A program made the translations under genes and the position numbers. Shown one piece after another: positions 21,290-48,225 of a stretch of 64,000 nucleotides of DNA. Origin of the DNA: Escherichia phage vB_Ec-M-J; the sequence record OQ718158.1, one strand, 5' to 3'. The stretch's first letter is position 1. Each line of letters begins with the position of its first letter. Below the pieces are notes generated by a model, which was not told the origin of the DNA, made no database searches, and worked only from the letters and a program-made list of their open reading frames with translations.

Positions 21290-21298
21290 GGGTAAAGT

Positions 21299-21623: not shown

Positions 21624-21668
21624 GTTTATATCAAACGACACCCACTTTAACAAATAATAGGAAATATT

Positions 21669-21972: not shown

Positions 21973-22065
21973 GTTTATATCAAAGGGAATGCAGTGAAAG
22001 GAAAGACAGCATAATCGTACTCGTCACTGCGTTTCCACCCTTTTAAATTAAATGAGGAATTAACT

Positions 22066-23620: not shown

Positions 23621-23630
23621 GGCGAATATC

Positions 23631-24564: not shown

Positions 24565-24567
24565 CAA

Positions 24568-24786: not shown

Positions 24787-24787
24787 G

Positions 24788-24991: not shown

Positions 24992-25025
24992 TAACTGTAT
25001 CAAAACAACCGCAACTGAGGATACT

Positions 25026-25688: not shown

Positions 25689-25921
25689 TATTGAGTTTTG
25701 TAGTTGCATTATTGTTTATGTTCTACCCTACACTAGTAGCAGTAGCCACTAAACGAAAGCTGGTGGATATCACTACTGTATTCTTGCTAAACGTGGCACT
25801 CGTTCTAGTGTCTATTATAATTCCCGTGAGCTTTACGGTTATTGATATGGCATCTGTATTACTATTCGTCTTCAGTTATCTTATGCTTATTGAAGAAAAA
25901 CCTGTTGACAAACGTTTGTAG
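25679..25921 (+). CDS. hypothetical membrane protein
   Basis: Two hydrophobic helices. Confidence 0.5.
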   Translation: MYLVLSFVVALLFMFYPTLVAVATKRKLVDITTVFLLNVALVLVSIIIPVSFTVIDMASVLLFVFSYLMLIEEKPVDKRL

Positions 25922-25932
25922 TACTGTATAAT
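25905..25932 (+). promoter_or_regulatory. sigma70-like promoter
   Basis: TTGACA-N16-TATAAT overlapping upstream gene end. Confidence 0.5.
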
Positions 25933-25979
25933 GGTTCTTGTAGTCTGAAACTTAACACTTAAACTTGAGGATATAAAAC

Positions 25980-26306
25980 ATGTTATCAGTTCTAATTTCA
26001 ATTCCTGCTCTAATTCTGTTATGGGTTATGGTTTTCGAATTCTTCATTAAAGACGAAACCGAGCGTGATGAGTTTCGTGAGTTGTTTATGTTAGACTCAC
26101 CCATTGTACGAATCTTCTTCGTTGTAGTACTTATTTCAGTACTGTCATGGTTAGTAAATTTTGTATTACCAATTGGACCATTTGTTTCAATTATGAATTT
26201 AGTTGAGAACATTGTTGGTATTGTGTGGTTTACTAATGCATTGTTTGCTGGTAAAGTTTCCATTTGGTTTGATATCTTGAAAGATAAACTAACTAGTAAG
26301 AAGTAA
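25980..26306 (+). CDS. hypothetical membrane protein
   Basis: GAGGA SD; hydrophobic segments. Confidence 0.55.
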   Translation: MLSVLISIPALILLWVMVFEFFIKDETERDEFRELFMLDSPIVRIFFVVVLISVLSWLVNFVLPIGPFVSIMNLVENIVGIVWFTNALFAGKVSIWFDILKDKLTSKK

Positions 26307-26384
26307 CGTTCAAAAAGTCTCTAATAGTATTAAATACTTCTGTACAAATAATATGTGCAGAAGTATTGCTCGTTAGAGGTTATA

Positions 26385-26750
26385 ATGAAAAAATATATAA
26401 GAATGATAATGGTGTTTGTAGTATTCATGCTTTATTCAAGGTTCAGTACAGCCGTACCTGCTTACCTTGATTGTATGGGAAACGATGGAACATGGCATGT
26501 ACTTTCTAATGACCCACAAAATGGAAACAATATTGTCGTAGATAATGAGGTTTACCGTTTCAGGGCCGAGAGTTTGATTGGGAATAAAAAGGTATCGACA
26601 TATAAATCAGATGCTGGTATAATAGCAAATGTAATATTGATAGTGGACCCCAAGACAAAGGATGGGGATATTTACATAGTCATTTATCAAGATTCGTCGA
26701 ACAAACGCGATCAGGATATTGATAAATTGAATATTCATTGTGAACTGTAA
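26385..26750 (+). CDS. hypothetical secreted protein
   Basis: ATG at 26385 after AGAGG; signal-peptide-like N-terminus. Confidence 0.55.
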   Translation: MKKYIRMIMVFVVFMLYSRFSTAVPAYLDCMGNDGTWHVLSNDPQNGNNIVVDNEVYRFRAESLIGNKKVSTYKSDAGIIANVILIVDPKTKDGDIYIVIYQDSSNKRDQDIDKLNIHCEL

Positions 26751-26760
26751 GGTATAACAA

Positions 26761-27144
26761 ATGATAAACGATGTAATGCTTTATGTATTAATTACTCCGA
26801 TTCTTATTAACTCAGTAATAACTATTTCAATGGCATTATTTGGTATAGTAGCAATTGTTTATGCGGTTAGTACTGGAAAGTATACTTTAATTAGTAAGGT
26901 TGATTCATGGTTCGCATCTGATAGTGTACCATATTCAGCTAGTATGATTACGATTGGTATTCTAATCGTTGCATTTACACTGCACTGTATTGGTTTTATT
27001 AATACAAGTATTTTTTCAGTTTTTATTGGTCTATCATTATATCCATCACTTTGGTACTTGATTTATGTAATCGATGTTTGGTATAATAACTACAAGCAGT
27101 ACAAAGTGAAGAAATCCATTTTATCCAAAGGAAACAAATCATGA
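26761..27144 (+). CDS. hypothetical membrane protein
   Basis: Several TM helices. Confidence 0.55.
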   Translation: MINDVMLYVLITPILINSVITISMALFGIVAIVYAVSTGKYTLISKVDSWFASDSVPYSASMITIGILIVAFTLHCIGFINTSIFSVFIGLSLYPSLWYLIYVIDVWYNNYKQYKVKKSILSKGNKS

Positions 27145-27491
27145 AAGTAATTTTGTTTTTTGTTTGTATGATTATATGTGGTATGTCTTATGCAGAACCA
27201 TTACCTGGACTAGTCTGTACTGAAGGTGATATTAAACACATTTACCAAGGTGATAGCGATGACCATACTATCGTTTATATCGATGGTGAAGTGTATAATT
27301 TTGTTAAAGAACATACTGTAGGTGACATTAGTTTTACGCAGTACTCGAATGATACTGATCCCAATATGCTTGCATTTCTTCAAGTTGATGTATATGAAGA
27401 AAGTAATGGTGAACAGTATGTTAAACTTGTGATGATGCGTAAGGCAGCAAAACAGGCAACATTCGGTGGCTTGTGTAAATATGAGGACTAA
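27141..27491 (+). CDS. hypothetical secreted protein
   Basis: ATGA overlap; signal peptide. Confidence 0.55.
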   Translation: MKVILFFVCMIICGMSYAEPLPGLVCTEGDIKHIYQGDSDDHTIVYIDGEVYNFVKEHTVGDISFTQYSNDTDPNMLAFLQVDVYEESNGEQYVKLVMMRKAAKQATFGGLCKYED

Positions 27492-27495
27492 ACAT

Positions 27496-27687
27496 ATGTT
27501 GATTTATCAATGTGATAACATTCGTGTTATGCAGCATCCCTACTTACAAATCTTTGATGTGCAGCAGTATATGGAAGGTGATGACCCAAGAACCTATGGT
27601 CGTAAGTATGATTACTTCACTGTAAAGCAGTGTCATAACATCAAAGAAGTACGACAATTAGTTCAAGAACTTCAAAATAAAGGTTGA
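27496..27687 (+). CDS. hypothetical protein
   Basis: ATG at 27496 after GAGGA; stop overlaps -35 of next cassette. Confidence 0.5.
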   Translation: MLIYQCDNIRVMQHPYLQIFDVQQYMEGDDPRTYGRKYDYFTVKQCHNIKEVRQLVQELQNKG

Positions 27688-27713
27688 CTTCGGTCAACCT
27701 TTTTTGTTATAAT
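27681..27713 (+). promoter_or_regulatory. PeSL-like promoter/UUCG-hairpin cassette
   Basis: aggTTGACTtcggtcaacct hairpin containing the -35, T-run, TATAAT 18 nt downstream. Confidence 0.6.
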
Positions 27714-27742
27714 TACTTCATCAACTACTGGGGATTTTAATT

Positions 27743-28183
27743 ATGTACGTATATCGTTTTGAACTTAAATTCAGTTATATTGAACCTAACTTAGATCCAG
27801 CAAAAACAGTAGGGCCGTTCGCACGGTACTCTTCACGATACAGTACTAAAAATGGATTTGACCGTTTGTGCATGACCACGCCTTCGCAATTCCAACCAGA
27901 ACCAACTGAAGATGGAATCTATTCAATCAAACGTGGCTGGGCATTTGGCTGTCAGAGTTTGAATGATTTGTTTAAGTTCTTTACTATGGACTTGGGTAAA
28001 TTACATCGTGCAGGGTTTGCTGTATCAGTATATGAAGTTCCTGATAATCATGTTGACATTGGTCGTAGTCAGGTTCAGTACTATTGTGGTAGTGCCAATC
28101 TGGTTCGTATTATGTCAGTGAGAGAAGCAAAGGATGAGTACCGCCAAAGTAAAAGAGTAATACATGAGGCTGTATATGGATAA
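27743..28183 (+). CDS. hypothetical protein
   Basis: 146-aa ORF downstream of cassette. Confidence 0.6.
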   Translation: MYVYRFELKFSYIEPNLDPAKTVGPFARYSSRYSTKNGFDRLCMTTPSQFQPEPTEDGIYSIKRGWAFGCQSLNDLFKFFTMDLGKLHRAGFAVSVYEVPDNHVDIGRSQVQYYCGSANLVRIMSVREAKDEYRQSKRVIHEAVYG

Positions 28184-28520
28184 GACTCAAATAGAATTAA
28201 AAAAATTTGTATCGTTTTATCTACCCAATGACCCACGTTGTACACAATATGATGTTGCATATTACAATGCATTGACTACACAGTTAATGAAGAAATTCAA
28301 ACAGTGTTTGACTGTATTCAATGATGATGGTAGACGTAGATATAGAATCATTCCAATGAATGATGAAAACGATAACTACTTTGACTTTGATGTTGTTTTT
28401 CGAGCATATAATGATGATAGAATAAAATTAAATTATGAGCAAATAATGCTTGACCTCAGTGTTATCTGTGTTATAATTACTCACATAGCCGAACTTGATG
28501 GTTTAAAAGAATGGTATTAA
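28176..28520 (+). CDS. hypothetical protein
   Basis: ATG at 28176 overlapping upstream gene end. Confidence 0.5.
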   Translation: MDKTQIELKKFVSFYLPNDPRCTQYDVAYYNALTTQLMKKFKQCLTVFNDDGRRRYRIIPMNDENDNYFDFDVVFRAYNDDRIKLNYEQIMLDLSVICVIITHIAELDGLKEWY

Positions 28521-28534
28521 CTTAGAGGATAATC

Positions 28535-28801
28535 ATGAAGCTTAAATTACAATACAATGGTTTTACTTTGCGTAACGACACTGAGTTTGTCAATCGTTCA
28601 CCAGGTGCTGAGTTGTTTTTGCGAGAGATGAACATTCCTTTCGTCATCACTACTGTTGGTGACCGTGAAGTGCTACAATACGCAGAGCATCCAGTTATTG
28701 ATGTTCCGTGGTATTCTGAGCATATGTATATGGATATGGCCCGTCGCTACGACTGTAAGTTCGTAGTTGAAGGTGATAAAATTACAGTCCAATTCAAATA
28801 A
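28535..28801 (+). CDS. hypothetical protein
   Basis: GAGGA SD. Confidence 0.6.
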   Translation: MKLKLQYNGFTLRNDTEFVNRSPGAELFLREMNIPFVITTVGDREVLQYAEHPVIDVPWYSEHMYMDMARRYDCKFVVEGDKITVQFK

Positions 28802-28812
28802 GGTAACTTAAA

Positions 28813-29106
28813 ATGATCAGTACTTCAGTAAATGCAAGCATCGTGGCAGACGTAGAAATGGTTAAAGAATGTACAGACGAAACCCTTCGCAACATGTACA
28901 TCAATGATTTGATTTCAGAGTACGGAAGTCGTGGTGTTCATGAGTTTGTTCGCCTAAGCGGTGAATTGATGAAGAATCGCATTCGTATGAAGCTTAATGT
29001 GCATCCAAAAGCATGGGCGTTTACAATGAAGTACGCTGAAGATATTGTTGAGTTGCGTCGCAATGATGTGTATAATCGTTTACACAATGGTACATTAAAG
29101 GACTAA
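28813..29106 (+). CDS. hypothetical protein
   Basis: AAGG SD. Confidence 0.55.
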   Translation: MISTSVNASIVADVEMVKECTDETLRNMYINDLISEYGSRGVHEFVRLSGELMKNRIRMKLNVHPKAWAFTMKYAEDIVELRRNDVYNRLHNGTLKD

Positions 29107-29156
29107 ATTATAGGAATCCGTAAAAGGATTCCTGTTCTTGTTTATAAGGTAATAAA

Positions 29157-29381
29157 ATGAAATATCTAGTACTAGTACTGCTATTCTTGAGTACTGTTGT
29201 ATGTGCTAAACCAAAGTATCATGTAGTGTGTATCAACGAGATGGAAGGATATACTGAAACATATAAGAACCATATTGTTGAAGTTGCAGCCCAAGGTTCC
29301 TATGGGACCATCATCTTCCTTAAGAACAATGTGATTGTTCAGTACAAAAAAGATTCAAATTGTAAAGTGACTAAAAAATGA
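29157..29381 (+). CDS. hypothetical secreted protein
   Basis: Signal peptide MKYLVLVLLFLSTVVCA. Confidence 0.55.
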   Translation: MKYLVLVLLFLSTVVCAKPKYHVVCINEMEGYTETYKNHIVEVAAQGSYGTIIFLKNNVIVQYKKDSNCKVTKK

Positions 29382-29451
29382 TCTAGATCAATTTTTCAGA
29401 TATTCTCTGTAAATAATAGCAGTACAGAACATTATTTTACGGAGGTGTAAT

Positions 29452-29688
29452 ATGGAAACTATAATCATCATATGTGCGTTGTTTGCATTTTTGGTAATGT
29501 GGTCACCAACATTCATTGCATATAAAATGAAAAATAAAAATGCAGAAGCAATTATGTACGTAAACTTATGTTGCATACTAACTTATGGAATACTTTTATT
29601 CTTTACTGAATTTACATTAATCCCAGTAGTAGTTTGTTCATCAATGTTTATTTGGTTGTTTCTGCTTTATGAATCTATTAAAAAATAA
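29452..29688 (+). CDS. hypothetical membrane protein
   Basis: GGAGGTG SD; TM helices. Confidence 0.55.
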   Translation: METIIIICALFAFLVMWSPTFIAYKMKNKNAEAIMYVNLCCILTYGILLFFTEFTLIPVVVCSSMFIWLFLLYESIKK

Positions 29689-29742
29689 AAGATATAGGGT
29701 TGGTAATATGCCATCCCTTTTACTTTATGTGGGGTTTAATTA

Positions 29743-30315
29743 ATGAATAGAAAAGGTAAGTTCAAAGTATCAAAGAAGAACAAAAGTTCTAGATTTAGAC
29801 CTATAACTTTAACTTTTAAGGCTAAAGAAGAATTAACTGCACTTAGTAAAAAGATAATTTCATCTAAGATTAAAGTATCATACGTAAATTCGGTAAAATT
29901 TCAGAAGGTTAAACCACAAGACAAACTCATTTCACTTATATTTAAACGTAATGATTTTGAGATATTAGTAGATGATTATAGAGCCTATAATGCTGGATTC
30001 ATTCATGTCACTTGTAATACCGAACTAACTGAGTTGGAACATTTGACATGTATCATAAGTGTAGATAACGGTGTGGTGAAGTACAATTTTTTACATTTTA
30101 CCAATATCAATAATGGAATGGGTGTACAATCCAGACCTATAGTACCTACATGTGATGTGACTAATTTAGCAAAGCTCAATGAAGAAGAATATTTTCAAGA
30201 AAGCATTGTAACTGAGCATTTAGATGCTATAATAGCAACTTACAAAGAATGCATATGGGTTTTGAATGCGATAAAGCCCAAATTGTGTTTAATGAATGTC
30301 GTTCGTGATTTATAA
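29743..30315 (+). CDS. hypothetical protein (EE-FQ motif family)
   Basis: NEEEYFQESIV motif. Confidence 0.6.
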   Translation: MNRKGKFKVSKKNKSSRFRPITLTFKAKEELTALSKKIISSKIKVSYVNSVKFQKVKPQDKLISLIFKRNDFEILVDDYRAYNAGFIHVTCNTELTELEHLTCIISVDNGVVKYNFLHFTNINNGMGVQSRPIVPTCDVTNLAKLNEEEYFQESIVTEHLDAIIATYKECIWVLNAIKPKLCLMNVVRDL

Positions 30316-30328
30316 CTGGAGATGTAGT

Positions 30329-30772
30329 ATGGGTTGGATTAACGTTAATAGCATTGAACTAAATGAGCAAGACATATTTGCCTTTGTTAATTTGGTAGAG
30401 AACATTGCTATTAAAGGTCGTCTGTTTAGTTCATCGGACGGTAAAAAATGGATCTCTCTTATGAACGACAATGGCGAGATTTATGACGTTATGCAACTAC
30501 CTCATTGGGCTTATAAGAATACATCTGATGATGTGATGGCTGCTGTTATGCGTGAGTTTGAGAAGCTGCCAGGTGGTGATATTAAGAACATCGTATTCAA
30601 TGCAGAACGCATGAACTACACACCAGAGCAGCTTCAACAGTTGGCAATTGCTGCCTATCAAGCTGCCATTAAGAAACCTGAATGTGTGATATTAAAGTAC
30701 ACACCGAACTTGAAGTTAACACTAGAAGATATGGATTCCTTTATCTTCAGTTCAGAACTTAAACAGTACTGA
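30329..30772 (+). CDS. hypothetical protein
   Basis: ATG at 30329 after GGAGATG. Confidence 0.55.
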   Translation: MGWINVNSIELNEQDIFAFVNLVENIAIKGRLFSSSDGKKWISLMNDNGEIYDVMQLPHWAYKNTSDDVMAAVMREFEKLPGGDIKNIVFNAERMNYTPEQLQQLAIAAYQAAIKKPECVILKYTPNLKLTLEDMDSFIFSSELKQY

Positions 30773-30883
30773 TTTGACTTTGGAACAACCATTTCATATG
30801 TGATATAATCTTAAGTGTCTGTTGAAATAAACAGCACATGAAGTATAAATATTAAAGTAATTTATCTCTTTAAGGAGTATGAA

Positions 30884-31267
30884 ATGGTTGATAAATGGAA
30901 TAAGAAAGATCCATCGCATGATGTGGATATTTCTGGAATTGATAATGCACATAAGCATAAGTATCTTGATTCACTAGGTCTACTAAAGCCTGACCAAAGT
31001 CTTGCACATGATCGTCCTTCACGCGAAAAAGCTTTCAGTTTAGAATCACTAGGCCATGAATTGAATCGTGTATTTGAAGATCATCCAATTTATGTACGTG
31101 ATATCATTGAGAAACTTAAAGTGACTCCTAAAGAGCACTTCAAGGCAACAGTACACGCAGCATTCCGTGCACTACATGAAGCACTAAAGAAAACTCATAA
31201 CCTTCGTAAGATTCATGATGATATCGTGAACTCTATTGAAGGCGAAAAACATAAGTTTAAAAAATAA
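30884..31267 (+). CDS. hypothetical basic protein with SLGLL motif
   Basis: AAGGAG SD; KYLDSLGLLKP motif shared with 32115 gene. Confidence 0.6.
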   Translation: MVDKWNKKDPSHDVDISGIDNAHKHKYLDSLGLLKPDQSLAHDRPSREKAFSLESLGHELNRVFEDHPIYVRDIIEKLKVTPKEHFKATVHAAFRALHEALKKTHNLRKIHDDIVNSIEGEKHKFKK

Positions 31268-31274
31268 TTAAAAG

Positions 31275-31307
31275 GGGTTGACTTCAGTCAGCCCTTTGTC
31301 GTATAAT
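31275..31307 (+). promoter_or_regulatory. PeSL-like promoter/hairpin cassette
   Basis: gggTTGACTtcagtcagccc hairpin, TATAAT 18 nt downstream. Confidence 0.55.
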
Positions 31308-31354
31308 ATTTTCATCAAGTGATACAAAATACAAACAACGTGAGGTATTAAATT

Positions 31355-31468
31355 ATGCAAGGTACTAAATTCATCATCGCTGCCCTAATCGCTGCTGTTG
31401 TAGTGGGTACAGTATGTTATTCAATTGACACCTATATCAATACACCTAGTGTTGAACAAACCAAATAA
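31355..31468 (+). CDS. hypothetical small membrane protein (37 aa)
   Basis: GAGG SD; single TM helix; below track cutoff. Confidence 0.4.
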   Translation: MQGTKFIIAALIAAVVVGTVCYSIDTYINTPSVEQTK

Positions 31469-31476
31469 GGGATATC

Positions 31477-31740
31477 ATGGCTGAAACATTATCACTATAT
31501 GCGTTAGTACTGTTATTTGTCGGATTTCTTCCCGCACTCATTACAGCCATTCGTGTTGTTAAACATGAAGCTGCATTGATTGTATGTAGTATTGGGTCGA
31601 ACATTCTATTGTATTTCTTTTTGACAAACACTATTGTACTGTTCGCTTTCTTTATCATGATTCTGTGGGTACTTGTAATTCTCGGATTCTTCATTTGGTC
31701 ATTGGTTGATCCTAAGAAAAAAACAGGAGAAGTGAAATGA
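31477..31740 (+). CDS. hypothetical membrane protein
   Basis: TM helices. Confidence 0.55.
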   Translation: MAETLSLYALVLLFVGFLPALITAIRVVKHEAALIVCSIGSNILLYFFLTNTIVLFAFFIMILWVLVILGFFIWSLVDPKKKTGEVK

Positions 31741-32033
31741 AATTAATTATTGTAATGATGATGTTTTTGGCTTTCCCAGTACTGGCTACTCCTAATCTGG
31801 ACTGCACACTGTTGCGTTCAGATGGTGACACACTTGAAATCAACACATATGAACTCTTTGGTCCAAGTGTAGTGGAGAATGAAACCACCTACAATTTCAA
31901 AGCTATTGACTTTGAAGGTAATGTTCCAGTACTAACTACAATGACTATTGACAAAACTACTTTACTCGGACGAATCACCACACAACGCGGAGAAAGTAAA
32001 ACATTCACAGCGAAAGCTGACTGTAACTACTAA
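31737..32033 (+). CDS. hypothetical secreted protein
   Basis: ATGA overlap; signal peptide. Confidence 0.55.
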   Translation: MKLIIVMMMFLAFPVLATPNLDCTLLRSDGDTLEINTYELFGPSVVENETTYNFKAIDFEGNVPVLTTMTIDKTTLLGRITTQRGESKTFTAKADCNY

Positions 32034-32045
32034 TGGTATAGTACA

Positions 32046-32076
32046 GTGAAAATAGGGTTGACTTCGGTCAACCTTT
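32046..32076 (+). promoter_or_regulatory. PeSL-like promoter/UUCG-hairpin cassette
   Basis: ggTTGACTtcggtcaacc hairpin, TATACT 17 nt downstream. Confidence 0.55.
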
Positions 32077-32114
32077 TCTTTATACTATAAATATAGTCAT
32101 AGAGAATAAACAAT

Positions 32115-33626
32115 ATGAAATCTATGGAGAGAAATCAAATGCCAGGTCAATTTACTGATAAAAATGGCGGGAACATGGCAGGTCACTCTGATAAATGGAG
32201 TGAACGCAATCGTCGTCAAAATAGCTACCAAGCAGGACAGGGGTCACGTGGTTCACGTAATCAAGGGACAGGTTTAGCTGGTAAGGCAAACGCAGAAGCA
32301 GGTGAAGTTAAGAGTACTGAGAACATGACTGAGCTAGAAAAGCTACGTTATGTTAACTCATTAGGTCTTCTTAACGCAACACAGAAACAACGCCTTGCTG
32401 ATATGGAACGTGCTGAGAAAGAACAAGAAGTTCCTAAAGAAGAACCAAAACCAGAAGCTCCTAAAGCAGCTAACCCTGTTAAAGAGTTATCTGATAACTT
32501 AGGTAAGATCTTTGCTAACAAACCACAGTTGATTCAGGGTATTGTCAAAGCACTACAGGCAGTTCCTAAAGAAGAACTCAAAGGTAAAGCACAAGCTGTA
32601 CTTGATGCAATGAAAGGTAATAAGAGCACTGAACCTACTGAAGTATTCAGTACTATCATGCGTGCACTTGAAGGTACACACAAAGAAGATTCCAAAGAAC
32701 CTGAACAGGGTGAAGCAAGTCTTGATGGTATTCTTAAAACTTTTGATAGTATTGGTAAAGCAGACCGTGCTAATGCCCAGCAAGTCAAGAATGTACTGGC
32801 TAAACTTGAAAACCGTTTAGAAGGTAAAGATGATAAGGTTAAGCTCGTATCAGATGCAGTTAACAGTGCACTTAAATCTTATGTACAAGGTGAGAAAAGT
32901 CGCTTCGTAACAGCTATGGATGCTGCATTCAACACTATGAAAAAGTATGAAGCAGAACATGGTGAGAAAGTGACACCTGATGGATATCTACTACGTAAAG
33001 ATGAAGAAGGTGCAGTTGAACAGAAAGATGTTGAGCCTGAGCAAGAAGATCTACCTGATACCGTTGATATGGATGGATACATTCATCGTCCTGAGATGGA
33101 AGAGTTTGGGTCAGATAAAGAAGGTTTTGAACATGCAATGGCAGTATATAAAGCATTAGTTAAAAATCCAGATTATGCTAACCGTTTTGTTGACGAGTTT
33201 GATAGTGCATGGAATAACTACAAAGAGAAAGGTTATGATTTCCCTGCTGAAGCTGCATTCTTTGAACTTGGTAAACTATTAGCTAAACATGGAATTGACG
33301 TTGGTTCATCTGATTCCGAAGGTATGGAAGAAGAACATCTTGAAATGACTGATAAATCAATTCATGAACTTCAAAAGTTAATGATGTGGATATCCGAGAT
33401 TGGTAAAAAAGCAGGTGCTGATAGTAAAAGTATCAACAAAAATATTAGTTGGATTAAAGATAATGTTGGTAACAATGCTCGTAAACTTCAAAAGGCTTGG
33501 GCTGATTTAGTAAATGGTGCAGATGATGTTGACATTGAATCACCAGAAGCATATGAGTATGCACTAACTACACTTGATAACTCATTCAAAGAGTACGACC
33601 GTGGTGTTGGAAAGGATAAAAAATAA
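32115..33626 (+). CDS. hypothetical charged Lys/Glu-rich protein (503 aa) with SLGLL motif
   Basis: Long ORF; RYVNSLGLLNAT motif; start codon uncertain. Confidence 0.65.
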   Translation: MKSMERNQMPGQFTDKNGGNMAGHSDKWSERNRRQNSYQAGQGSRGSRNQGTGLAGKANAEAGEVKSTENMTELEKLRYVNSLGLLNATQKQRLADMERAEKEQEVPKEEPKPEAPKAANPVKELSDNLGKIFANKPQLIQGIVKALQAVPKEELKGKAQAVLDAMKGNKSTEPTEVFSTIMRALEGTHKEDSKEPEQGEASLDGILKTFDSIGKADRANAQQVKNVLAKLENRLEGKDDKVKLVSDAVNSALKSYVQGEKSRFVTAMDAAFNTMKKYEAEHGEKVTPDGYLLRKDEEGAVEQKDVEPEQEDLPDTVDMDGYIHRPEMEEFGSDKEGFEHAMAVYKALVKNPDYANRFVDEFDSAWNNYKEKGYDFPAEAAFFELGKLLAKHGIDVGSSDSEGMEEEHLEMTDKSIHELQKLMMWISEIGKKAGADSKSINKNISWIKDNVGNNARKLQKAWADLVNGADDVDIESPEAYEYALTTLDNSFKEYDRGVGKDKK

Positions 33627-33635
33627 ACATTTAAA

Positions 33636-33667
33636 AGGTTGACTTCGGTCAACCTTTTTTTGTAAAT
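33636..33667 (+). promoter_or_regulatory. PeSL-like cassette (weak -10)
   Basis: aggTTGACTtcggtcaacct hairpin plus T-run; -10 only GTAAAT. Confidence 0.45.
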
Positions 33668-33697
33668 ATTGTAGAGGGTTTTATAAGAGGTAATGCA

Positions 33698-33949
33698 ATG
33701 TTTAAATATGTTTTATTTTCACTTGTATTGTTTACTGATATAGTTTATAGTACTGAATACCAGTGCTCCATTGCTAGACAGGAGTTTAGAAACGGTGAGT
33801 TCTATACCAAGTCTTACACTAGAGGATTGGTACATGACAATAATAAAACTATAGGGTTCAATGCATTTGATAACAAAGATCGATATACGTCTGGAATACT
33901 ATCTGAACGTAAGTCTGATATACTAGGTATCGAGCGTGAATTCCGGTGA
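33698..33949 (+). CDS. hypothetical secreted protein
   Basis: Hydrophobic N-terminus. Confidence 0.5.
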   Translation: MFKYVLFSLVLFTDIVYSTEYQCSIARQEFRNGEFYTKSYTRGLVHDNNKTIGFNAFDNKDRYTSGILSERKSDILGIEREFR

Positions 33950-33959
33950 CACGGTTGCA

Positions 33960-34310
33960 ATGTGTAATGATATTGAGAGTACTAAGAAAGTATATACTAA
34001 TGGTGAAAATACTTTTAGATTCCACAATCTTACTACTAATGAAAGTTTATACTTCTACAACTGTAAAGAGTTCATTAAACCTGTGGATAACTCATGTGAT
34101 ATGCCGGAGCCAAAAGCTGCTGTATGTGAGGAACCACAATCCAAAGCTGACAAAGATTCAAAAGATAAGAAAGACAAAGCTGACAAATCGGATAAAAAAG
34201 AAAACAAAAAGAAAGCTAAAGATGATAAAGATAAAAAGTCCCCTAAGCCAAATCCATTTGAAAAGCCAAAGAATGAAAAGCCAAAACCAGACATGACATG
34301 TAAAATATAA
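33960..34310 (+). CDS. hypothetical Cys-containing protein with Lys/Asp-rich tail
   Basis: ATG at 33960; low-complexity KDKKDKADKSDKK tail. Confidence 0.45.
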   Translation: MCNDIESTKKVYTNGENTFRFHNLTTNESLYFYNCKEFIKPVDNSCDMPEPKAAVCEEPQSKADKDSKDKKDKADKSDKKENKKKAKDDKDKKSPKPNPFEKPKNEKPKPDMTCKI

Positions 34311-34317
34311 AAGAAAA

Positions 34318-34350
34318 GGGTTGACTTCGGTCGGCCTTTTTTGCTATAAT
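34318..34350 (+). promoter_or_regulatory. PeSL-like promoter/UUCG-hairpin cassette
   Basis: gggTTGACTtcggtcggcc hairpin, T-run, TATAAT, conserved leader catttcatcaact. Confidence 0.6.
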
Positions 34351-38533: not shown

Positions 38534-38947
38534 ATGAAGAAGTGTATCACGTGTAATATTGAAAAAGACATTAGTGAATTTGGTATAAGAAGTGATACTG
38601 GGAAACATAGAAATACATGCAAAGGTTGTAGTAATATTACCAGTAAGAAAACCAGAAATAAAAAAACTGATGTCAAAAAACTTGAAGAAATCAAAAGAAA
38701 AAATAAAGATTTCATGACCAGAGTTAAATCATTTTATGGTTGTAGTGTTTGTATGATGAAGTATCCAGAATGTTTAGACTTTCACCATCTTGACCCTAAT
38801 ACCAAAGAACATACACCAAGTTCTATGTTCAGTAAAAGTCGAGATGCTATCAAAGATGAAATTCGAAAGTGTATGATTCTTTGTTCTAATCACCATCGCA
38901 TGGTACATTCTGGTAGACTATGTTTGATTGAAAGAAAAAAGGGTTGA
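38534..38947 (+). CDS. HNH homing endonuclease
   Basis: CxxC pairs plus DFHHLDPNTKEH...ILCSNHHRMVH; stop codon lies within the -35 of the next cassette. Confidence 0.7.
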   Translation: MKKCITCNIEKDISEFGIRSDTGKHRNTCKGCSNITSKKTRNKKTDVKKLEEIKRKNKDFMTRVKSFYGCSVCMMKYPECLDFHHLDPNTKEHTPSSMFSKSRDAIKDEIRKCMILCSNHHRMVHSGRLCLIERKKG

Positions 38948-38973
38948 CTTCGGTCAGCCCTTTTTGCTATAAT
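38941..38973 (+). promoter_or_regulatory. PeSL-like promoter/UUCG-hairpin cassette
   Basis: gggTTGACTtcggtcagccc hairpin, T-run, TATAAT. Confidence 0.65.
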
Positions 38974-39001
38974 CATTTCATCGAAACGAGAGGATGAATA
39001 C

Positions 39002-39517
39002 ATGACACGCATTAACTTAGTACACGTTAAAGAACTTGCTGACCAACATCTGATGGCTGAATATCGTGAACTCCCACGTGTGTTTGGTGCTGTACAAAAA
39101 CATGTTCAAGCACGTAAGCGAGTCCGTGATTTCAAAATTAACAGTACTTACCTGTTAGGTTCAGGTCATGTAACATTCTTCTACAACAAGTTATTGTACT
39201 TACAGAAGCGTCATATTGATATTGTTAACGAATGTTTGCGTCGTGGTATGAAGATTCAAAACACTGAAGTAAACGACATTAGCGGATTCCCTGCTGAGTT
39301 TTGTAATGACTACGTACCATCGGAGTCAGAGATTAAAATGTCTCGTGAGCGTTTGATTGAGAAGCTCCAGATGAAGCCTACGTGGTATAAATTTACTGAC
39401 GTTGAACGCCCACAGTACGTTAAAGATATGCAGGACGTAAGTAGTAATATAGAATCTAGTACTGATATGTTAGACGAAATTGAAGAACAAATCAAAGATG
39501 AAATGAATAATTATTAA
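39002..39517 (+). CDS. denV: endonuclease V (pyrimidine-dimer DNA glycosylase/AP lyase), T4 DenV homolog
   Basis: N-terminus [35 protein letters not shown]...RVRDFKI...GHVTFFY closely matches T4 endonuclease V as recalled from memory. Confidence 0.8.
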
Positions 39518-39522: not shown

Positions 39523-39540
39523 AGGGTTAACTTCGGTCAC
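39523..39540 (+). repeat. degenerate remnant of PeSL-like cassette
   Basis: gggttaacttcggtcac resembles the cassette hairpin but lacks T-run and -10. Confidence 0.35.
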
Positions 39541-39555: not shown

Positions 39556-39750
39556 ATGTTATTAGTATATTCAAAGCGTTTCTGGATTTCTTTTATTGTA
39601 CTATCGCTTATCGGCTTCGGTGTGAGTATACTCTTTTCGTGGGATGAATTGGGTACATGGTATTATGAAGTTCCGTGGTACATGAAGATAGCTCCTTGTT
39701 ATGCGGCATTGTTCGTGTCATTCCTTATTGTTGTCTTCAGCGAGGATTAG
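39556..39750 (+). CDS. hypothetical membrane protein
   Basis: AAGGAA SD; two TM helices. Confidence 0.55.
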   Translation: MLLVYSKRFWISFIVLSLIGFGVSILFSWDELGTWYYEVPWYMKIAPCYAALFVSFLIVVFSED

Positions 39751-39801: not shown

Positions 39802-39830
39802 TTGACACCTGTTCTATCTTTCTGTATTAT
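39802..39830 (+). promoter_or_regulatory. sigma70-like promoter
   Basis: TTGACA-N17-TATTAT. Confidence 0.5.
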
Positions 39831-39856: not shown

Positions 39857-40216
39857 ATGGCATCTTTAAGTGAAATCGCGGAATACAACCCACTAACAAT
39901 CTCAACAATTCAACGTACAAAAACTTTTTATTTCCGTCCTGCTGATGGATGGAAACGTGGAATGAATGGTGACTATCGAGTACTGGAAGATGCACTCGTC
40001 GAGCGTATCAACTCTGAACTACATAAGTATGAAGGTGTTAAAGTTGTGCGTTCAACTTCTCGTTATTTTGAGTACTACATTGAGTCTTCAACTGTAAATG
40101 AAAACTCATCATTCTCGGTGGATAACACTGATATTCTTCGCAATGCAGTTGGTCTGTTATGCAACATTGCTGAGGAAATGGGATTAACTATTACTACAAT
40201 GAGTGAATTAGAATGA
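39857..40216 (+). CDS. hypothetical protein
   Basis: GAGGAA SD. Confidence 0.6.
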   Translation: MASLSEIAEYNPLTISTIQRTKTFYFRPADGWKRGMNGDYRVLEDALVERINSELHKYEGVKVVRSTSRYFEYYIESSTVNENSSFSVDNTDILRNAVGLLCNIAEEMGLTITTMSELE

Positions 40217-40410
40217 TTAAAACTTTTATTCTTACTATGGTATTTGGGTCTTATGGGTATGGTGGTGGTGTAGCAACAGTTGAGTATCCATTATACGAAG
40301 ATTGTAAGGCCGCCGCTGAAGTGTTTGTAAAAACAACCAAAGATTTAGCAACTGTCACTGATGCAAAAGCTTGGTGTACAACTAAAAATACACCAGAAAC
40401 TAAGAAATAA
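40213..40410 (+). CDS. hypothetical secreted/membrane protein
   Basis: ATGA overlap; hydrophobic N-terminus. Confidence 0.5.
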   Translation: MIKTFILTMVFGSYGYGGGVATVEYPLYEDCKAAAEVFVKTTKDLATVTDAKAWCTTKNTPETKK

Positions 40411-40418: not shown

Positions 40419-40451
40419 GGGTTGACTTCGGTCAGCCCTTTTTGCTATAAT
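40419..40451 (+). promoter_or_regulatory. PeSL-like promoter/UUCG-hairpin cassette
   Basis: Near-identical copy of cassette at 38941 and 41830. Confidence 0.65.
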
Positions 40452-40477
40452 TATTTCATCAACTGATGAGGTAACAA

Positions 40478-40714
40478 ATGAAACTATCTTTTATACGATT
40501 AGCTGAATTTTTCGGTACTAATGTAATTACTCTACAACAAATCGCAGATAATACATCATTAACTACTCAAGAAGTACTTGACTTAGATGTAATTCAGTGC
40601 GATAATACTTCCATCGATTACAAAGAAGGTCTTGTCGAAAAAGATAAGATTCAAGCTAAGATTAATGGTGCTGGACGGGTTCAGTACTGGAAAGGAGTTT
40701 TAAGTAATGTATAA
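40478..40714 (+). CDS. hypothetical protein
   Basis: GAGG SD in conserved cassette leader. Confidence 0.55.
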   Translation: MKLSFIRLAEFFGTNVITLQQIADNTSLTTQEVLDLDVIQCDNTSIDYKEGLVEKDKIQAKINGAGRVQYWKGVLSNV

Positions 40715-41822
40715 ATTTTATTTTAATGACGATGGTGAAAAAGTTTATTTCCACGAAGAACTTGGTATGCGTTTTGAATGGATGCACGCGGAAGACATTG
40801 AACAATTTTCTTGTGGAAAAACTGCCAAAGACCACGTTGATGACATAGAGGCATCATTCTATGATTTAGGAATAACTGATATCACAATTTTGGGTATTGG
40901 TGTGTCAAACGCAGCTGAATTTGGTATTTCTGGAAATTCACATGCTAAAATCGTCTTAAAAAAAGACGATATCATCTATAATAATTATAAAATAACTGCT
41001 TTTAAAACAAAGCTTAATAAGTTGTCAGAAGGTGATGGTATTAAGTTATCTTTTTCATACACAAATGATAATTATTACTATTACGTAACCAAACTTGCAA
41101 AATTACAATCTAAAAACTGTCATATACATCCAAATGAAATAATTGATAATGGAATTTCATCTAAAATAAAATTCACATATAGTGATGGTGTAACTGTACC
41201 TAGAAGAATAAATGATATATTGACAAAAACTAAAATTAATGTGAGTTATTTTGTAGATGATGATATTAGAGATGGGGTAGCTTTAAATCGATGTAGAGAA
41301 TTGAAATATCATTTTCAGTCTATTTACAAGCATGAGAATGGACGATACTTTGTAAAATATGAGTGTACTAGAGGTCATCAATGTGATCAAGACTATCATG
41401 CATTTACTGGTACAGCGAAGCAATCATGTGGTGTGTGTTCTAAACTTAAGACACACTCATATGGTCATAATGATACCATGAAATTTTTAAGGAATTTGCA
41501 TATTACAATAACGGAAAAAACTTTCAATGATTTGAAAGATAAAATGAAACTTCCATATGATTTTTATGTGAAAGATTTAAATGCGTTGATAGAATATGAC
41601 GGTAGTGATCATTTTAAAAATAAGTCATCTCGAAACAATTTTATTGATCGTCAGAAGAAAGATAAAATGAAAACGGAGTACGCAATCAACAATGGATATA
41701 ACTTCCTACGAATTGCATATTATGAAGGTCATCTTGAAGTACTGGAATCTTTCCTGAAACTCATCGAAGAGAACCCAGGAAAGCAAATCGTACAGATTTA
41801 TGGTGATGTGAAAATCATCTAA
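40707..41822 (+). CDS. putative nuclease with C-terminal Vsr/DUF559-like domain
   Basis: C-terminal ALIEYDGSDHF...RQKKD...NGYNFLRI pattern plus internal Cys cluster; family assignment from memory. Confidence 0.4.
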   Translation: MYKFYFNDDGEKVYFHEELGMRFEWMHAEDIEQFSCGKTAKDHVDDIEASFYDLGITDITILGIGVSNAAEFGISGNSHAKIVLKKDDIIYNNYKITAFKTKLNKLSEGDGIKLSFSYTNDNYYYYVTKLAKLQSKNCHIHPNEIIDNGISSKIKFTYSDGVTVPRRINDILTKTKINVSYFVDDDIRDGVALNRCRELKYHFQSIYKHENGRYFVKYECTRGHQCDQDYHAFTGTAKQSCGVCSKLKTHSYGHNDTMKFLRNLHITITEKTFNDLKDKMKLPYDFYVKDLNALIEYDGSDHFKNKSSRNNFIDRQKKDKMKTEYAINNGYNFLRIAYYEGHLEVLESFLKLIEENPGKQIVQIYGDVKII

Positions 41823-41829: not shown

Positions 41830-41862
41830 AGGGTTGACTTCGGTCAGCCCTTTTTGCTATAA
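41830..41862 (+). promoter_or_regulatory. PeSL-like promoter/UUCG-hairpin cassette
   Basis: gggTTGACTtcggtcagccc hairpin, T-run, TATAAT, leader catttcatcaactgatgagg. Confidence 0.65.
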
Positions 41863-41891
41863 TCATTTCATCAACTGATGAGGATAACGAA

Positions 41892-42662
41892 ATGACCAGA
41901 GAAGCACGTAGCATTCAAATCCAGAAAAACTTCAACTCCATGATGGTTGCTCTTGAGTGTTTGCTCGACGATAACAGTACTGTAAAAAGTATGGTTGTCA
42001 GCGGTGCACCTGGTGTTGGTAAGACTTACACCCTGTCACAACGCCTCCAGAAAGCTCATGACGCAGCAGAATGGAACGTAGCTACTATCAGTGGTAAGAT
42101 GACTACTCTTGCTCTGTACGAAGTTCTGTACAAGAATCGTCACAGCACTAACGTATTAGTACTGGATGATATGGACAGCATCTTTGATTCAGAAGACGGT
42201 ATGAACCTGCTCAAAGCAGTACTGGACAGCGGTAAACGTACTGTGTCTTACATGACTAGCTCTAAGTACTTAACTACCAACGGTATCCCTAACAGCTTTG
42301 ATTTTAACGGTCGTATCGTATTCATTACTAACAAAGATTTAGCACTGAATGCTAAAGCTAAAACCAAAATGTCTGCTCACTATGCTGCTCTTATGTCTCG
42401 CTCTGTGTATGTTGACTTACAGATCCAGACTAAAAGCGATATCATGATTCACATTGAAAACGTAATGAACAAGACCAACATCCTGTCAACTAAAGGTGTT
42501 AATAGTAATGGTAGCAAAGCAATCCTGAATTGGATGCTGAAACATGAAGATGCACTTCGTGCCCCTTCACTGCGTATGCCTCTGTTGATTTCAGCAGTAT
42601 ACAACAACAACCCGTATGATTGGGAAGAGCAGTGCGAAAACTTGTTCCTTGAGAAAATTTAA
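41892..42662 (+). CDS. P-loop NTPase (AAA-like ATPase)
   Basis: Walker A SGAPGVGKT, Walker B VLVLDDMD, sensor-like RIVFITN. Confidence 0.65.
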   Translation: MTREARSIQIQKNFNSMMVALECLLDDNSTVKSMVVSGAPGVGKTYTLSQRLQKAHDAAEWNVATISGKMTTLALYEVLYKNRHSTNVLVLDDMDSIFDSEDGMNLLKAVLDSGKRTVSYMTSSKYLTTNGIPNSFDFNGRIVFITNKDLALNAKAKTKMSAHYAALMSRSVYVDLQIQTKSDIMIHIENVMNKTNILSTKGVNSNGSKAILNWMLKHEDALRAPSLRMPLLISAVYNNNPYDWEEQCENLFLEKI

Positions 42663-47091: not shown

Positions 47092-48225
47092 TTAAACTGG
47101 TGGAGAATTATATGGCTCAAATTTATAAGTTGTCGTAGCAGTACCAGCAATGGCGTTGTTAGCTAGTATGTACATAGTCCTATAGTCGATTACTACCACA
47201 GTAATACTACCACCAAAAGCATAGTCTGTTATGTTATTAGTGTTGAATGGTAAATTAGATGAACTGGTCCATGTATTAGCTGTTGTGCTATTTGTACCAT
47301 TGGAATAGCCGACACTAGATGCACCAGTTGTCCATAAGTTTCCATCATTGAACAACGATACATGGTTAGCTGTATATGATTTATTAGGTATAGAACTATC
47401 AATTGGCGTATTCCAAACTTTAGTAACCCATGTTGTGACGGCTGTATTATTAGTAACACCATTACCTAACGAACCATTTATTGGTATACCTCTTATATAA
47501 GAAGTGTTAGTACTAGGGTCAACATATCCAAATGTATATGTATCAAATGCAAATTGAAAACAATCAGAACTCGGTAATGTGTACAGTAATGTATATGAAG
47601 ACGTGATTATTGATGAATTTGTACCGTTCACGCCTTGGTATAAAATACCACTACCCAATATTTGATTATTATTTTTTGTTATAGCAGTCATAGATGGATA
47701 TGTTTTTACTTCACGCACATCATTAGTTACATATGTTTGTGTTGATAATGCAACATTACTACCATTACCAATAACACCTGTATTTGCACCGCTTCCATAA
47801 AGTGAACCATCATTCAAAAGTACCATTGTGGCATTACTATTTCCAGTAATTGTTTTAATATTACTAACATCCACCGCAGCAAATACAGTTGATGTTAAAT
47901 CAGTGAAACGTGTATAATGTGATGTTGTGCCATTGATTGGTGTCGCAAAACCAGAATACAAAATTCTATTTTCTTTGGTAATAAGGAATGTTCCAGTAAC
48001 ACCGTTTGAATGGATATCAATAATATTATCGCCCATTAATACCCAATCACTTACGAATGTTGTACCAGCACCCAACCCATATGTCGTATTGTATCCACGT
48101 CCATACACTCTACCATCACTGAGTAATGTTACCACACATTGACCACCACCACCAAGGATAACTTTTTGGATAGTACTCTTTACTTTTATATTCCCGTACT
48201 TAACCATTCTTGCAAAAGGTAACAT
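47092..48225 (-). CDS. MLPF-family beta-propeller protein, paralog 2
   Basis: MLPFARMVKYGNIKV; Gly/Thr/Asn-rich body; conserved upstream box. Confidence 0.7.
   Translation of the reverse strand: MLPFARMVKYGNIKVKSTIQKVILGGGGQCVVTLLSDGRVYGRGYNTTYGLGAGTTFVSDWVLMGDNIIDIHSNGVTGTFLITKENRILYSGFATPINGTTSHYTRFTDLTSTVFAAVDVSNIKTITGNSNATMVLLNDGSLYGSGANTGVIGNGSNVALSTQTYVTNDVREVKTYPSMTAITKNNNQILGSGILYQGVNGTNSSIITSSYTLLYTLPSSDCFQFAFDTYTFGYVDPSTNTSYIRGIPINGSLGNGVTNNTAVTTWVTKVWNTPIDSSIPNKSYTANHVSLFNDGNLWTTGASSVGYSNGTNSTTANTWTSSSNLPFNTNNITDYAFGGSITVVVIDYRTMYILANNAIAGTATTTYKFEPYNSPPV

Follow-up and report, generated by a model that had tools for sequence, protein, structure and literature searches.

PeSLs (promoter-early stem-loops) have been described in the T4-like phages RB49/phi1, PST/T4 and nt-1/KVP40 (Arbiol 2010, PMC2839356; Comeau 2014, PMC4122927). 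Degraded 'half' PeSLs next to indels have also been published (PMC2839356, PMC4122927), and mini-circles between PeSLs have been shown experimentally, by inverse PCR, only for RB49 and phi1 (PMC2839356). The Rak2-like phages are distant relatives of the T4-like phages, with core proteins that are about 31-38% identical (PMC5259590). For Rak2-like or jumbo phages, our literature search yielded no paper in which PeSLs are named; it turned up one reference-list mention and otherwise generic descriptions of an 'RpoD-like promoter' only.

The DNA analysed here, the window, is a stretch of 64 kb from Escherichia phage vB_Ec-M-J that carries a denV gene, from which the original prediction had suggested a T-even-related lineage. 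The phage is not a T-even. A megablast search with the denV locus matches 121Q-like jumbo phages (350-380 kb) best; the locus is 94-99% identical to JP4, UB, 121Q, PBECO4 and others, and no T-even record is among the matches. The records of the matching phages give their taxonomy as Asteriusvirus, only three of the 234 window ORFs of at least 50 aa match the complete T4 genome at E < 1e-3, and the window DenV belongs to a sister clade of the T-even proteins. The window thus belongs to Asteriusvirus (121Q/PBECO4-like, Rak2-like jumbo coliphages). A megablast search of complete E. coli genomes found no match to the denV locus, which is therefore neither a prophage nor a host copy.

A PeSL-type cassette upstream of denV

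The gene is headed by a short composite element that recurs in the window. The parts of the denV copy and the positions of the other copies are as follows.

38936..39001, + strand: putative PeSL-type composite terminator/promoter cassette (sequence, promoter scan, RNA fold)
38936-40, + strand: A-run (sequence)
38941-38960, + strand: hairpin with an 8-bp stem, one U.G pair and a C(UUCG)G loop (sequence, fold)
38944-49, + strand: -35 hexamer TTGACT, inside the 5' arm of the hairpin (sequence)
38961-65, + strand: T-run (sequence)
38965-67, + strand: TGn (sequence)
38968-73, + strand: -10 hexamer TATAAT (sequence)
38990-93, + strand: SD GAGG, after the leader (sequence); ATG at 39002
19208, 27681, 31275, 32055, 33636 and 34318 (span 19208..34350), + strand: six further cassettes (sequence)
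40419..40477, + strand: intact cassette that likely terminates the denV unit and drives orf78 (sequence, scan, fold)
41831..41891, + strand: intact cassette heading a gene for an nrdC.10-like AAA ATPase (41892..42662) (sequence)
39524..39539, + strand: half cassette GGGTTAACTTCGGTCA, with the 5' arm and loop kept and the 3' arm, T-run and -10 gone

As had been predicted, denV stands behind a repeated cassette that starts at 38941, where the sequence begins with GGGTTGACTTCGGTCAGCCC. This 20-mer has nine copies in the window at three mismatches or fewer, all on the + strand, where none would be expected by chance. The nine intact copies and the half copy lie at 19.2-41.9 kb, all in the same orientation, among small variable ORFs. 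Relative to a stop codon, the six further cassettes start anywhere from 6 nt upstream to 22 nt downstream, with an ATG usually 59-62 nt on, and the distance from hairpin start to ATG is 59-62 nt in seven of all nine. In a promoter scan the motif TTGACT-18-TATAAT with TGn scores 11/12 at 34321, 38944, 40422 and 41834; generic promoters are not enriched overall in the 10-kb region (42 found vs 46 expected). The RNA of the denV cassette folds with a dG of -18.6 kcal/mol, and the intact cassettes range from -16.6 to -18.6. The record of phage G17 annotates the same element as an ARNOLD terminator (-17); Rfam at gathering thresholds matches five tRNAs only, and nothing at the cassette.

By consensus and folding energy, the cassette fits a combined terminator and promoter of the PeSL class. 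The C(UUCG)G hairpin and T-run would end the upstream transcript, and the same DNA of about 60 bp would start transcription of denV through a near-consensus sigma-70 promoter, a leader and an SD. Given such a promoter, denV is expected to be an early gene read by host RNA polymerase. Like a PeSL, the window cassette combines a terminator stem-loop with a strong sigma-70 promoter, an SD and an ATG; its many copies, with a half copy among them, all point the same way and lie among small, non-essential early ORFs; and close relatives differ by indels and replacements at the elements. The stem form of the nt-1 PeSLs, A3-4 G3-loop-C3 T3-4 (PMC4122927), also fits. A difference lies in the position of the -35, which is within the hairpin arm here, whereas in the PST PeSLs the stem-loop is just 5' of the promoter (PMC4122927). 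PeSLs were defined in T4-like (Straboviridae) genomes, so that a Rak2-like genome falls outside the original scope of the class but not outside its mechanism.

The early promoters of T4 are, like the window cassettes, extended strong promoters, but their -35 is GTTTAC and their -10 TACTAT, and the -35 overlaps with no C(UUCG)G hairpin. When the complete T4 sequence was searched with the hairpin, only 13-mer matches at chance level turned up, and no cassette. The 9-mer ATCAACTAC lies 6 nt after the -10 in eight T4 early promoters, that of T4 denV included, and at the same distance from the -10 in window cassettes 27681 and 34318, while cassettes 40419 and 41831 carry ATCAACTGATG. The leader of the denV cassette has diverged relative to this T4-early-type leader.

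The denV gene and its transcription unit

The genes and other elements around denV are listed here.

38534..38947, + strand: free-standing HNH homing-endonuclease gene, 137 aa (PHROG 2255, E 9e-32)
39002..39517, + strand: denV, pyrimidine-dimer DNA glycosylase/AP lyase by homology, 171 aa (Pfam, PHROG, PDB, AF2/Foldseek)
39556..39750, + strand: orf64, small hydrophobic protein (ORF list; hypothetical gp218 in 121Q)
39802..39830, + strand: plain sigma-70-like promoter TTGACA-17-TATTAT without a hairpin, 5' of orf119 (scan 11/12, a consensus match only)
39857..40216, + strand: orf119 (PHROG 32140, E 6e-81)
40213..40410, + strand: orf65, variable gene directly 5' of the 40419 cassette (ORF list, relatives)

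The identification of the gene as a denV homologue has been borne out. Its product, which starts MTRINL behind an SD GAGG 8 nt 5' of the ATG, matches Pfam PF03013 Pyr_excise (55.2 bits, cut-off 23) and PHROG 1183 (E 8.5e-59); NCBIfam has no model matching it. It aligns with the T4 endonuclease V chains 2END, 1ENK and 1VAS over residues 1-131 at E 8e-54 to 1e-52 (7.9e-54 for 2END). With T4 DenV it shares 90% of residues 1-31, 70% of residues 1-90 and 64% of residues 1-131, ungapped, so that the match extends beyond the first 90 or so residues in which it had been noticed. The residues kept at T4-equivalent positions are Thr2, Arg3, His16, Glu20, Tyr21, Arg22, Glu23, Arg26, Arg117, Lys121, Trp128 and Tyr129. 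They include Thr2 and Glu23, the two whose presence had been proposed as a check. In an alignment of 27 homologues M1, T2 and R3 are invariant, as are Glu23 and the DNA-binding residues Arg3, Arg22, Arg26, Arg117 and Lys121. Thr2 of T4 endonuclease V is the N-terminal alpha-amino nucleophile. In the window protein the free alpha-amino group of Thr2, after removal of Met, would likewise attack C1' of the 5' pyrimidine of the dimer, Glu23 would help catalysis, and Arg3, Arg22, Arg26, Arg117 and Lys121 would hold the kinked DNA.

An AF2 model of the protein (pLDDT 83) has the all-alpha endonuclease V fold, and Foldseek aligns it with 1ENK/2END at E ~1e-13 with a TM(target) of 0.86 and an rmsd of 2.1 A over 130 columns. 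It differs from T4 endonuclease V at the C-terminus, being 171 aa long vs 138. Residues 1-131 form the catalytic domain. In the aromatic segment at its end W128, Y129 and K130 are kept, while Y131 is replaced by F and Y132 by T, so that the T4 C-terminus WYKYYGKAIYA corresponds to WYKFT followed by an acidic tail with no T4 counterpart. This tail (residues 132-171) is predicted to be helical from residue 138, and its 40 residues include 12 D/E and 3 K/R. By homology, the ORF is a DenV-type DNA glycosylase/AP lyase specific for cyclobutane pyrimidine dimers, and hence an enzyme of UV repair. The DenV proteins annotated in Asteriusvirus (121Q gp217, YP_009101804; G17_00096; JP4_CDS0197; TH47) are the same gene at the same locus, with protein identity up to 99% (P0001, TH47) and flanking DNA 95-99% identical. 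These relatives differ from the window in whether they carry the upstream HNH gene and in the genes after denV, and the DenV tail varies among them, giving proteins of 144/145, 158 and 171 aa and a 242-aa fusion. As a gene, denV is routine here, a textbook enzyme already annotated in the public records of 121Q-like phages.

The TGA stop of the HNH gene (38945-38947) falls within the -35 hexamer of the denV cassette. This gene is annotated as an HNH endonuclease in JP4, fEgEco12 and WPEC3; its match to Pfam HNH_2 is sub-threshold only. Several HNH-type homing endonuclease genes lie within the same few kb and could drive part of the mosaicism of the region. Downstream of denV, orf64 matches no PHROG or Pfam family. 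Salmonella phage SD-2_S15 has an in-frame fusion of a shortened denV with orf119 (P0005, the 242-aa DenV-orf119 protein). The next gene, orf65, is absent in 121Q and G17, and a 203-aa ORF stands in its place in JP4.

A degenerate cassette copy had been predicted downstream of denV, and we locate it at 39524. The half cassette has one mismatch in 16, where the chance expectation in the window is ~4.5e-4; it folds with a dG of -2.2 kcal/mol, vs -18.6 for the intact denV cassette. In 121Q and G17 it is conserved as GGGTTGACTTCGGTTACACA, and similarity stops at 39539 in five records. In the close relatives fEgEco12, EC.P1 and BF17 an intact cassette occupies exactly this position, and the half copy in the window is therefore a true remnant. 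We considered and rejected a still-working promoter here, its -35 being TTAACT and the hexamer at the right spacing ATAACA. Since the hairpin, T-run and -10 of the half copy have been lost, denV most likely heads a unit of about 1.45 kb that runs up to 40419. The original description of a single-gene cassette is thus only partly right: two intact cassettes flank denV in fEgEco12, EC.P1 and BF17, but in the window the downstream copy is broken. In the window denV is probably the first gene of a four-gene transcription unit, which would comprise denV, orf64, orf119 and orf65 and would end at the intact cassette 40419. This makes orf64 probably co-transcribed with denV.

Recombination at the cassettes

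Pairwise genome comparisons, from which the polarity of an event (deletion or insertion) cannot be read, place many differences between relatives at cassettes. Phage fEgEco12 is without window positions 39540-41827, its flanking blocks overlapping by 19 bp inside the cassette, and EC.P1 has the same junction; in both, the crossover partner of the half cassette is cassette 41831. BF17 is without 39540-40415, and the partner there is cassette 40419. In TH47 a 507-aa gene is inserted between two cassettes upstream of denV. The HNH gene is an indel relative to 121Q and G17, which are without 38523-38926, and BF17 has another ORF there. The indels and replacements of the HNH gene, orf65 and the endonuclease gene all abut cassettes (JP4, 121Q, G17, fEgEco12). 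Breakpoints at cassettes are thus seen in fEgEco12, EC.P1, BF17, TH47, 121Q, G17 and JP4, although some would adjoin cassettes anyway, since cassettes fill most of the intergenic space in the region.

Comparison of relatives that are 97-99% identical shows that cassette-to-cassette recombination reshapes the denV neighbourhood. The cassettes would act as portable homology patches, and recombination between copies would delete, insert or replace the intervening genes. On the same comparisons, the half cassette is a recombination scar that still serves as a crossover point. An alternative is that the mosaicism is generated mainly by free-standing homing endonucleases, encoded by the HNH-type genes that start at 38534 and 40707 and by the corresponding genes of relatives. 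They would act through double-strand-break repair and co-conversion, the cassettes being ordinary gene punctuation that happens to lie in the intergenic gaps. The endonuclease genes are indeed the most variable items, the HNH gene being present or absent and the 371-aa endonuclease gene giving way to one of 487 aa in 121Q and to one of 516 aa in WPEC3. The 507-aa insert of TH47 is itself a zinc-ribbon-repeat gene, and homing endonucleases are among the contributors to such mosaicism according to Comeau et al. (PMC4122927). However, the junctions of fEgEco12 and BF17 are clean crossovers within the 16-19 bp overlap of half and intact copies, with a complete cassette regenerated, and the TH47 insert is bounded by cassettes on both sides, which is predicted by cassette-cassette recombination and not by break repair alone. 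We regard homing endonucleases as a possible main cause, but not as the likely one.

The resemblance between cassettes might also be purely regulatory, with functional convergence accounting for near-identity across copies and phage families and no special role in recombination. A transcriptional role can be assigned to almost every base of AAAGGGTTGACTTCGGTCAGCCCTTTTT, since little freedom is left by the -35 hexamer, UUCG tetraloop, GC clamp and A/T runs. This explanation seems improbable to us, given that the breakpoints map within the cassette, that mini-circles between PeSLs have been demonstrated in RB49 and phi1 (PMC2839356), and that a U.G pair which is not obligatory (GGGTTGAC/GTCAGCCC) is common to Rak2-like phages, Aeromonas phage 65 and Vibrio phage D482. 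The identical AAAGGGTTGACTTCGGTCAGCCCTTTTT core, U.G pair included, and the T4-early-type leader ATCAACTAC invite the speculation that Rak2-like jumbo phages hold one PeSL family in common with Straboviridae such as Aeromonas phage 65 and the KVP40-like Vibrio phages. It would serve as a cross-family recombination 'currency' by which these otherwise very distant groups exchanged accessory early genes, among them denV, motB.2-like and nrdC.10-like genes; we think this rather unlikely.

Residence of denV in Rak2-like phages

In a neighbour-joining tree of DenV proteins (500 bootstraps), the Tevenvirinae sequences are monophyletic in 93% of bootstraps, and the Rak2-like and Tevenvirinae sequences together split from other DenVs in 99.6%. 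Monophyly of the Rak2-like DenVs receives 28%, or 83% with four unplaced metagenomic sequences added. The window protein is not nested in the T-even clade; the Rak2-like and Tevenvirinae DenVs are sister clades with 60-64% identity, while the DenVs of other Straboviridae are only 36-40% identical to either. Identity within the Rak2-like group is 67-85%, a diversity of much the same depth as the distance to T4 (60-64%). The cassette lies directly 5' of denV in Asteriusvirus, Alcyoneusvirus KP13-7, Pectobacterium phage CBB and a metagenomic relative, with a variant in L010. In those four Rak2-like lineages the surroundings of denV are otherwise mostly unrelated, with few or no other shared neighbours. 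Together with the sister-clade tree, this linkage points to old residence plus ancient exchange.

These results bear on the idea of denV as a mobile single-gene module that came recently from a T-even-type phage and entered the genome by recombination at the cassettes around it. Cassette sequence does lie on both sides of denV, both flanking copies being intact in BF17, fEgEco12 and EC.P1. DenV is also far closer to T4 (64%) than are the other two T4-homologous window ORFs (38-41%) or the core proteins (31-38%, PMC5259590), and all three T4-homologous ORFs stand directly behind a cassette. Against this, denV and its upstream cassette occur together in every Rak2-like lineage examined, including CBB, whose DenV is 66-69% identical; the diversity of the Rak2-like DenVs is nearly as deep as their distance to T4, and the T-even proteins group in a clade apart; the hairpin is absent from T4; and in comparisons within the genus neighbours come and go while denV stays, with no compared genome lacking it. 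Recent delivery therefore seems very improbable, and the view of denV as a module delivered in this way is not upheld, it being the neighbours that vary. A recent transfer from T4 to a jumbo phage was likewise rejected on tree depth, on the linkage of cassette and gene across Rak2-like genera and on the lack of cassettes in T4.

The data point to denV as a long-standing resident of the Rak2-like group, not newly delivered. Its closeness to T4 DenV would reflect an ancient lateral exchange between Tevenvirinae and Rak2-like phages, or a shared source. T4 denV likewise stands behind an early promoter, in a genome context otherwise unrelated to that of the window. We consider it quite likely that the whole account holds together, that is, a DenV enzyme expressed from a PeSL-type cassette as part of a four-gene unit, with recombination at the cassettes and an old residence of the gene.

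On these sequence comparisons DenV does not track phage lineage, and DenV similarity should not serve as a lineage marker. The junctions of fEgEco12, BF17 and TH47 offer unusually clean natural material for studying recombination between such units. Our results suggest that the early region of Rak2-like jumbo phages, too, is punctuated and reshuffled by PeSL-type units, which have so far been described for T4-like phages.

The DenV protein and its genomic setting

The gene at 39002..39517 encodes a homologue of T4 endonuclease V, as the original prediction had proposed. Its product scores 55.2 bits against the Pfam pyrimidine dimer DNA glycosylase family PF03013 (cut-off 23), matches PHROG 1183 (endonuclease V N-glycosylase UV repair enzyme, 8.5e-59) and aligns without gaps, residues 1-131 on 1-131, with the solved structures of T4 endonuclease V (E 8e-54). 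In a BLASTP comparison 84 of 131 residues (64%) are identical to T4 DenV, the identity being 90% at residues 1-31 and 70% at residues 1-90. The essential residues of T4 endonuclease V are Thr2, Arg3, Glu20, Arg22, Glu23, Arg26, Arg117 and Lys121. All are kept in the window DenV and do not vary among 27 aligned homologues, including Thr2 and Glu23, which the prediction had singled out. The AlphaFold model (pLDDT 83) resembles 1ENK/2END (TM 0.86, rmsd 2.1 A), and the protein is probably a CPD glycosylase/AP-lyase. At the C-terminus T4 DenV has WYKYYGKAIYA, whereas the window DenV has WYKFT and a variable acidic tail, residues 132-171 (39395..39517), with 12 D/E and 3 K/R in the 40 residues after 131 and a helix predicted from residue 138. 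DenV lengths vary: proteins of 144/145 aa have no tail, those of 158 aa have a 13-residue deletion, and others are 171 aa or 176-181 aa long. The tail's end motif, (D/N)IE(Q/R)QIK(D/E)EMN, reappears in homologues of just 68-72% identity, which argues for an old tail and repeated losses of it.

The gene is a known one. The locus is 94-99% identical to JP4, UB, 121Q, PBECO4, G17, fEgEco12 and others, Escherichia phages of 350-380 kb placed in Asteriusvirus in their records, all of which already list the gene as endonuclease V or pyrimidine dimer glycosylase. Of all 234 window ORFs of at least 50 aa, just three have a match in the complete T4 genome; the window is therefore not a T-even genome, and the T-even-related lineage suggested by the prediction gives way to an Asteriusvirus-like one. 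The Rak2-like jumbo phages, which include Asteriusvirus, are described as remotely related to T4-like phages, their core proteins being 31-38% identical (PMC5259590). The features of the window discussed here are as follows, a cassette being a repeated combined terminator/promoter element.

3423..6842, five clustered tRNA genes (Ser-TGA, Ser-GCT, Met, Asn, Thr) among small plus-strand ORFs
18232..19200, sigma-70-family protein (Pfam regions 2 and 3)
27743..28183, T4 counterpart motB.2-like, 41% identity over 54 aa
38534..38947, HNH homing-endonuclease gene inserted between orf111 and the cassette
39002..39517, plus strand, denV, 171-aa ORF, T4 counterpart DenV, 64% identity
39524, half cassette, GGGTTAACTTCGGTCA, only 5' arm and loop retained
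40707..41822, HNH/homing-endonuclease-like gene, 371 aa (PHROG 559, E 5e-27)
41892..42662, T4 counterpart nrdC.10-like (AAA ATPase), 38% identity
45206..63775, minus strand, tandem array of sixteen paralogue-sized ORFs (331-399 aa)

One ORF of the array (47092..48225) has weak RCC1-repeat Pfam matches. The sigma-70-family gene ends 8 nt before the 19208 cassette, and phage CBB has a homologue of its product near denV.

Anatomy of the cassette

The 20-mer GGGTTGACTTCGGTCAGCCC at 38941 has nine copies at up to three mismatches, every one on the plus strand, where none is expected by chance. Aligned, the copies form one fixed unit of A-run, hairpin, T-run, TGn + TATAAT, leader, SD and ATG. The hairpin has a C(UUCG)G loop on an 8-bp stem and folds at -16.6 to -18.6 kcal/mol; the -35 (TTGACT) sits within its 5' arm, 18 nt from the -10. 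Relative to the stop codon of the preceding gene, the copies start anywhere from 6 nt upstream to 22 nt downstream, and in seven of the nine the next ATG lies 59-62 nt downstream. The TGA stop of the HNH gene is itself part of the cassette -35. In the G17 record the same element is annotated as an intrinsic terminator. We infer that transcripts terminate at the hairpin and that host RNA polymerase transcribes early from the promoter.

As predicted, denV is bracketed by the cassette at 38941 and a degenerate copy at 39524, a 16-mer match with one mismatch being expected only about 4.5e-4 times in the window. The half cassette folds at -2.2 kcal/mol and has neither T-run nor -10. Because it cannot terminate, transcription from denV would read through as far as the 40419 cassette.

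All three window ORFs with T4 homologues (motB.2-like, DenV and nrdC.10-like) are the first gene after a cassette; given that some 125 genes include nine headed by a cassette, the probability of three out of three is about 2.6e-4.

Rearrangements at cassettes

In the relatives compared, segments in common with the window are 97-99% identical, and the differences start or stop at cassettes.

Differences from the window in related phages
fEgEco12, EC.P1: 39540-41827 absent; the two collinear blocks share 19 bp within the cassette; intact cassette 3' of denV
BF17: 39540-40415 absent; intact cassette left 3' of denV; another ORF replaces the HNH gene
TH47: 507-aa zinc-ribbon-repeat gene inserted between HNH gene and denV, a cassette at each side
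121Q, G17: HNH gene (38523-38926) and orf65 (40215-40410) absent, both gaps stopping short of a cassette by a few bases
121Q: different endonuclease (487 aa) before the 41831 cassette
WPEC3: similarity stops at 39405, within denV; short DenV C-terminus ...ELPEYYTEMIK
Salmonella phage SD-2_S15: 242-aa DenV-orf119 fusion

The 507-aa gene of TH47 has repeated ITCPEHGDFEQ motifs. Thirteen records share the window-type junction (tail, half cassette, orf64), and in five others similarity breaks off at 39539. JP4, UB, fEgEco12, WPEC3 and TH47 carry the HNH gene, 121Q and G17 lack it, and BF17 has a replacement, while unrelated endonuclease genes stand in place of the 371-aa gene in 121Q and WPEC3 (516 aa). 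Recombinant junctions lie at cassettes in these relatives. The mosaicism probably arose mainly from homologous recombination between cassettes, and homing endonucleases are likely to have contributed.

History of denV and relationship to PeSLs

The same cassette lies directly 5' of denV in the window, JP4 (one base different in the loop), 121Q, G17, Pectobacterium phage CBB and Klebsiella phage KP13-7, and a variant does so in a metagenomic Rak2-like relative (L010). Within 3 kb on each side, no other gene is common to the window denV neighbourhood and these loci, except in KP13-7, with two diverged upstream genes in common. The linkage of cassette and denV is conserved across Rak2-like genera; the prediction, confirmed in its observation, is only partly supported in its interpretation, since in the relatives compared it is the neighbours of denV that move, and delivery of denV as a mobile module is not supported. 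DenV identity is 67-85% inside the Rak2-like group, 56-64% to Tevenvirinae and only 36-43% to DenV from Pseudotevenvirus, Schizotequatrovirus, Tulanevirus and one phage of the Ackermannviridae. In a neighbour-joining tree (500 bootstraps), Rak2-like and Tevenvirinae DenVs split from the remainder in 99.6% of bootstraps, Tevenvirinae DenV is monophyletic in 93%, and Rak2-like DenVs cluster with four unplaced metagenomic sequences in 83%. We favour the reading that denV has resided behind the cassette since before the split of the Rak2-like genera; the likeness to T4 DenV would then reflect an ancient lateral exchange, in either direction, or a source common to both.

The cassette fits the published class of promoter-early stem-loops (PeSLs), composites of a terminator, a strong sigma-70 promoter and an SD, which cluster among small variable early ORFs, adjoin indels between close relatives and include degraded half copies; mini-circle formation has been demonstrated experimentally in RB49 and phi1 (PMC2839356, PMC4122927). 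Its stem also agrees with the form A3-4 G3-loop-C3 T3-4 described in nt-1. The core AAAGGGTTGACTTCGGTCAGCCCTTTTT, with a U.G pair, is identical in two T4-like phages, Aeromonas phage 65 (202870-203201) and Vibrio phage D482, and in both an ATG follows after some 60 nt; in phage 65 the core stands at the head of a gene annotated 'putative UV damage repair endonuclease'. In Citrobacter phage CfP1, a Pseudotevenvirus whose DenV is highly divergent (39% identity), a terminator hairpin with TTGCAA, then TATATT, lies 5' of denV; it resembles a PeSL placed ahead of the gene in another group of phages. The hairpin was not found in the T4 genome, nor were PeSLs found named in Rak2-like phages in the literature; the CBB paper describes a concentration of RpoD-like promoters in the early region. 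In cassette leaders (window 27720, 34357, 40458 and 41870), ATCAACTAC (or ATCAACTGATG) lies 6 nt past the -10. Eight early promoters of T4, that of denV included, have the same 9-mer equally far from the -10 (T4 6586, 27036, 53899, 65370, 70652, 73528, 163629 and 167042). This suggests that the Rak2-like cassette promoter and the early promoters of T4 have an initial-transcribed motif in common. Hinton's review mentions extra consensus regions in T4 early promoters and does not give the 9-mer sequence. The cassette is a known kind of element in a new host group.
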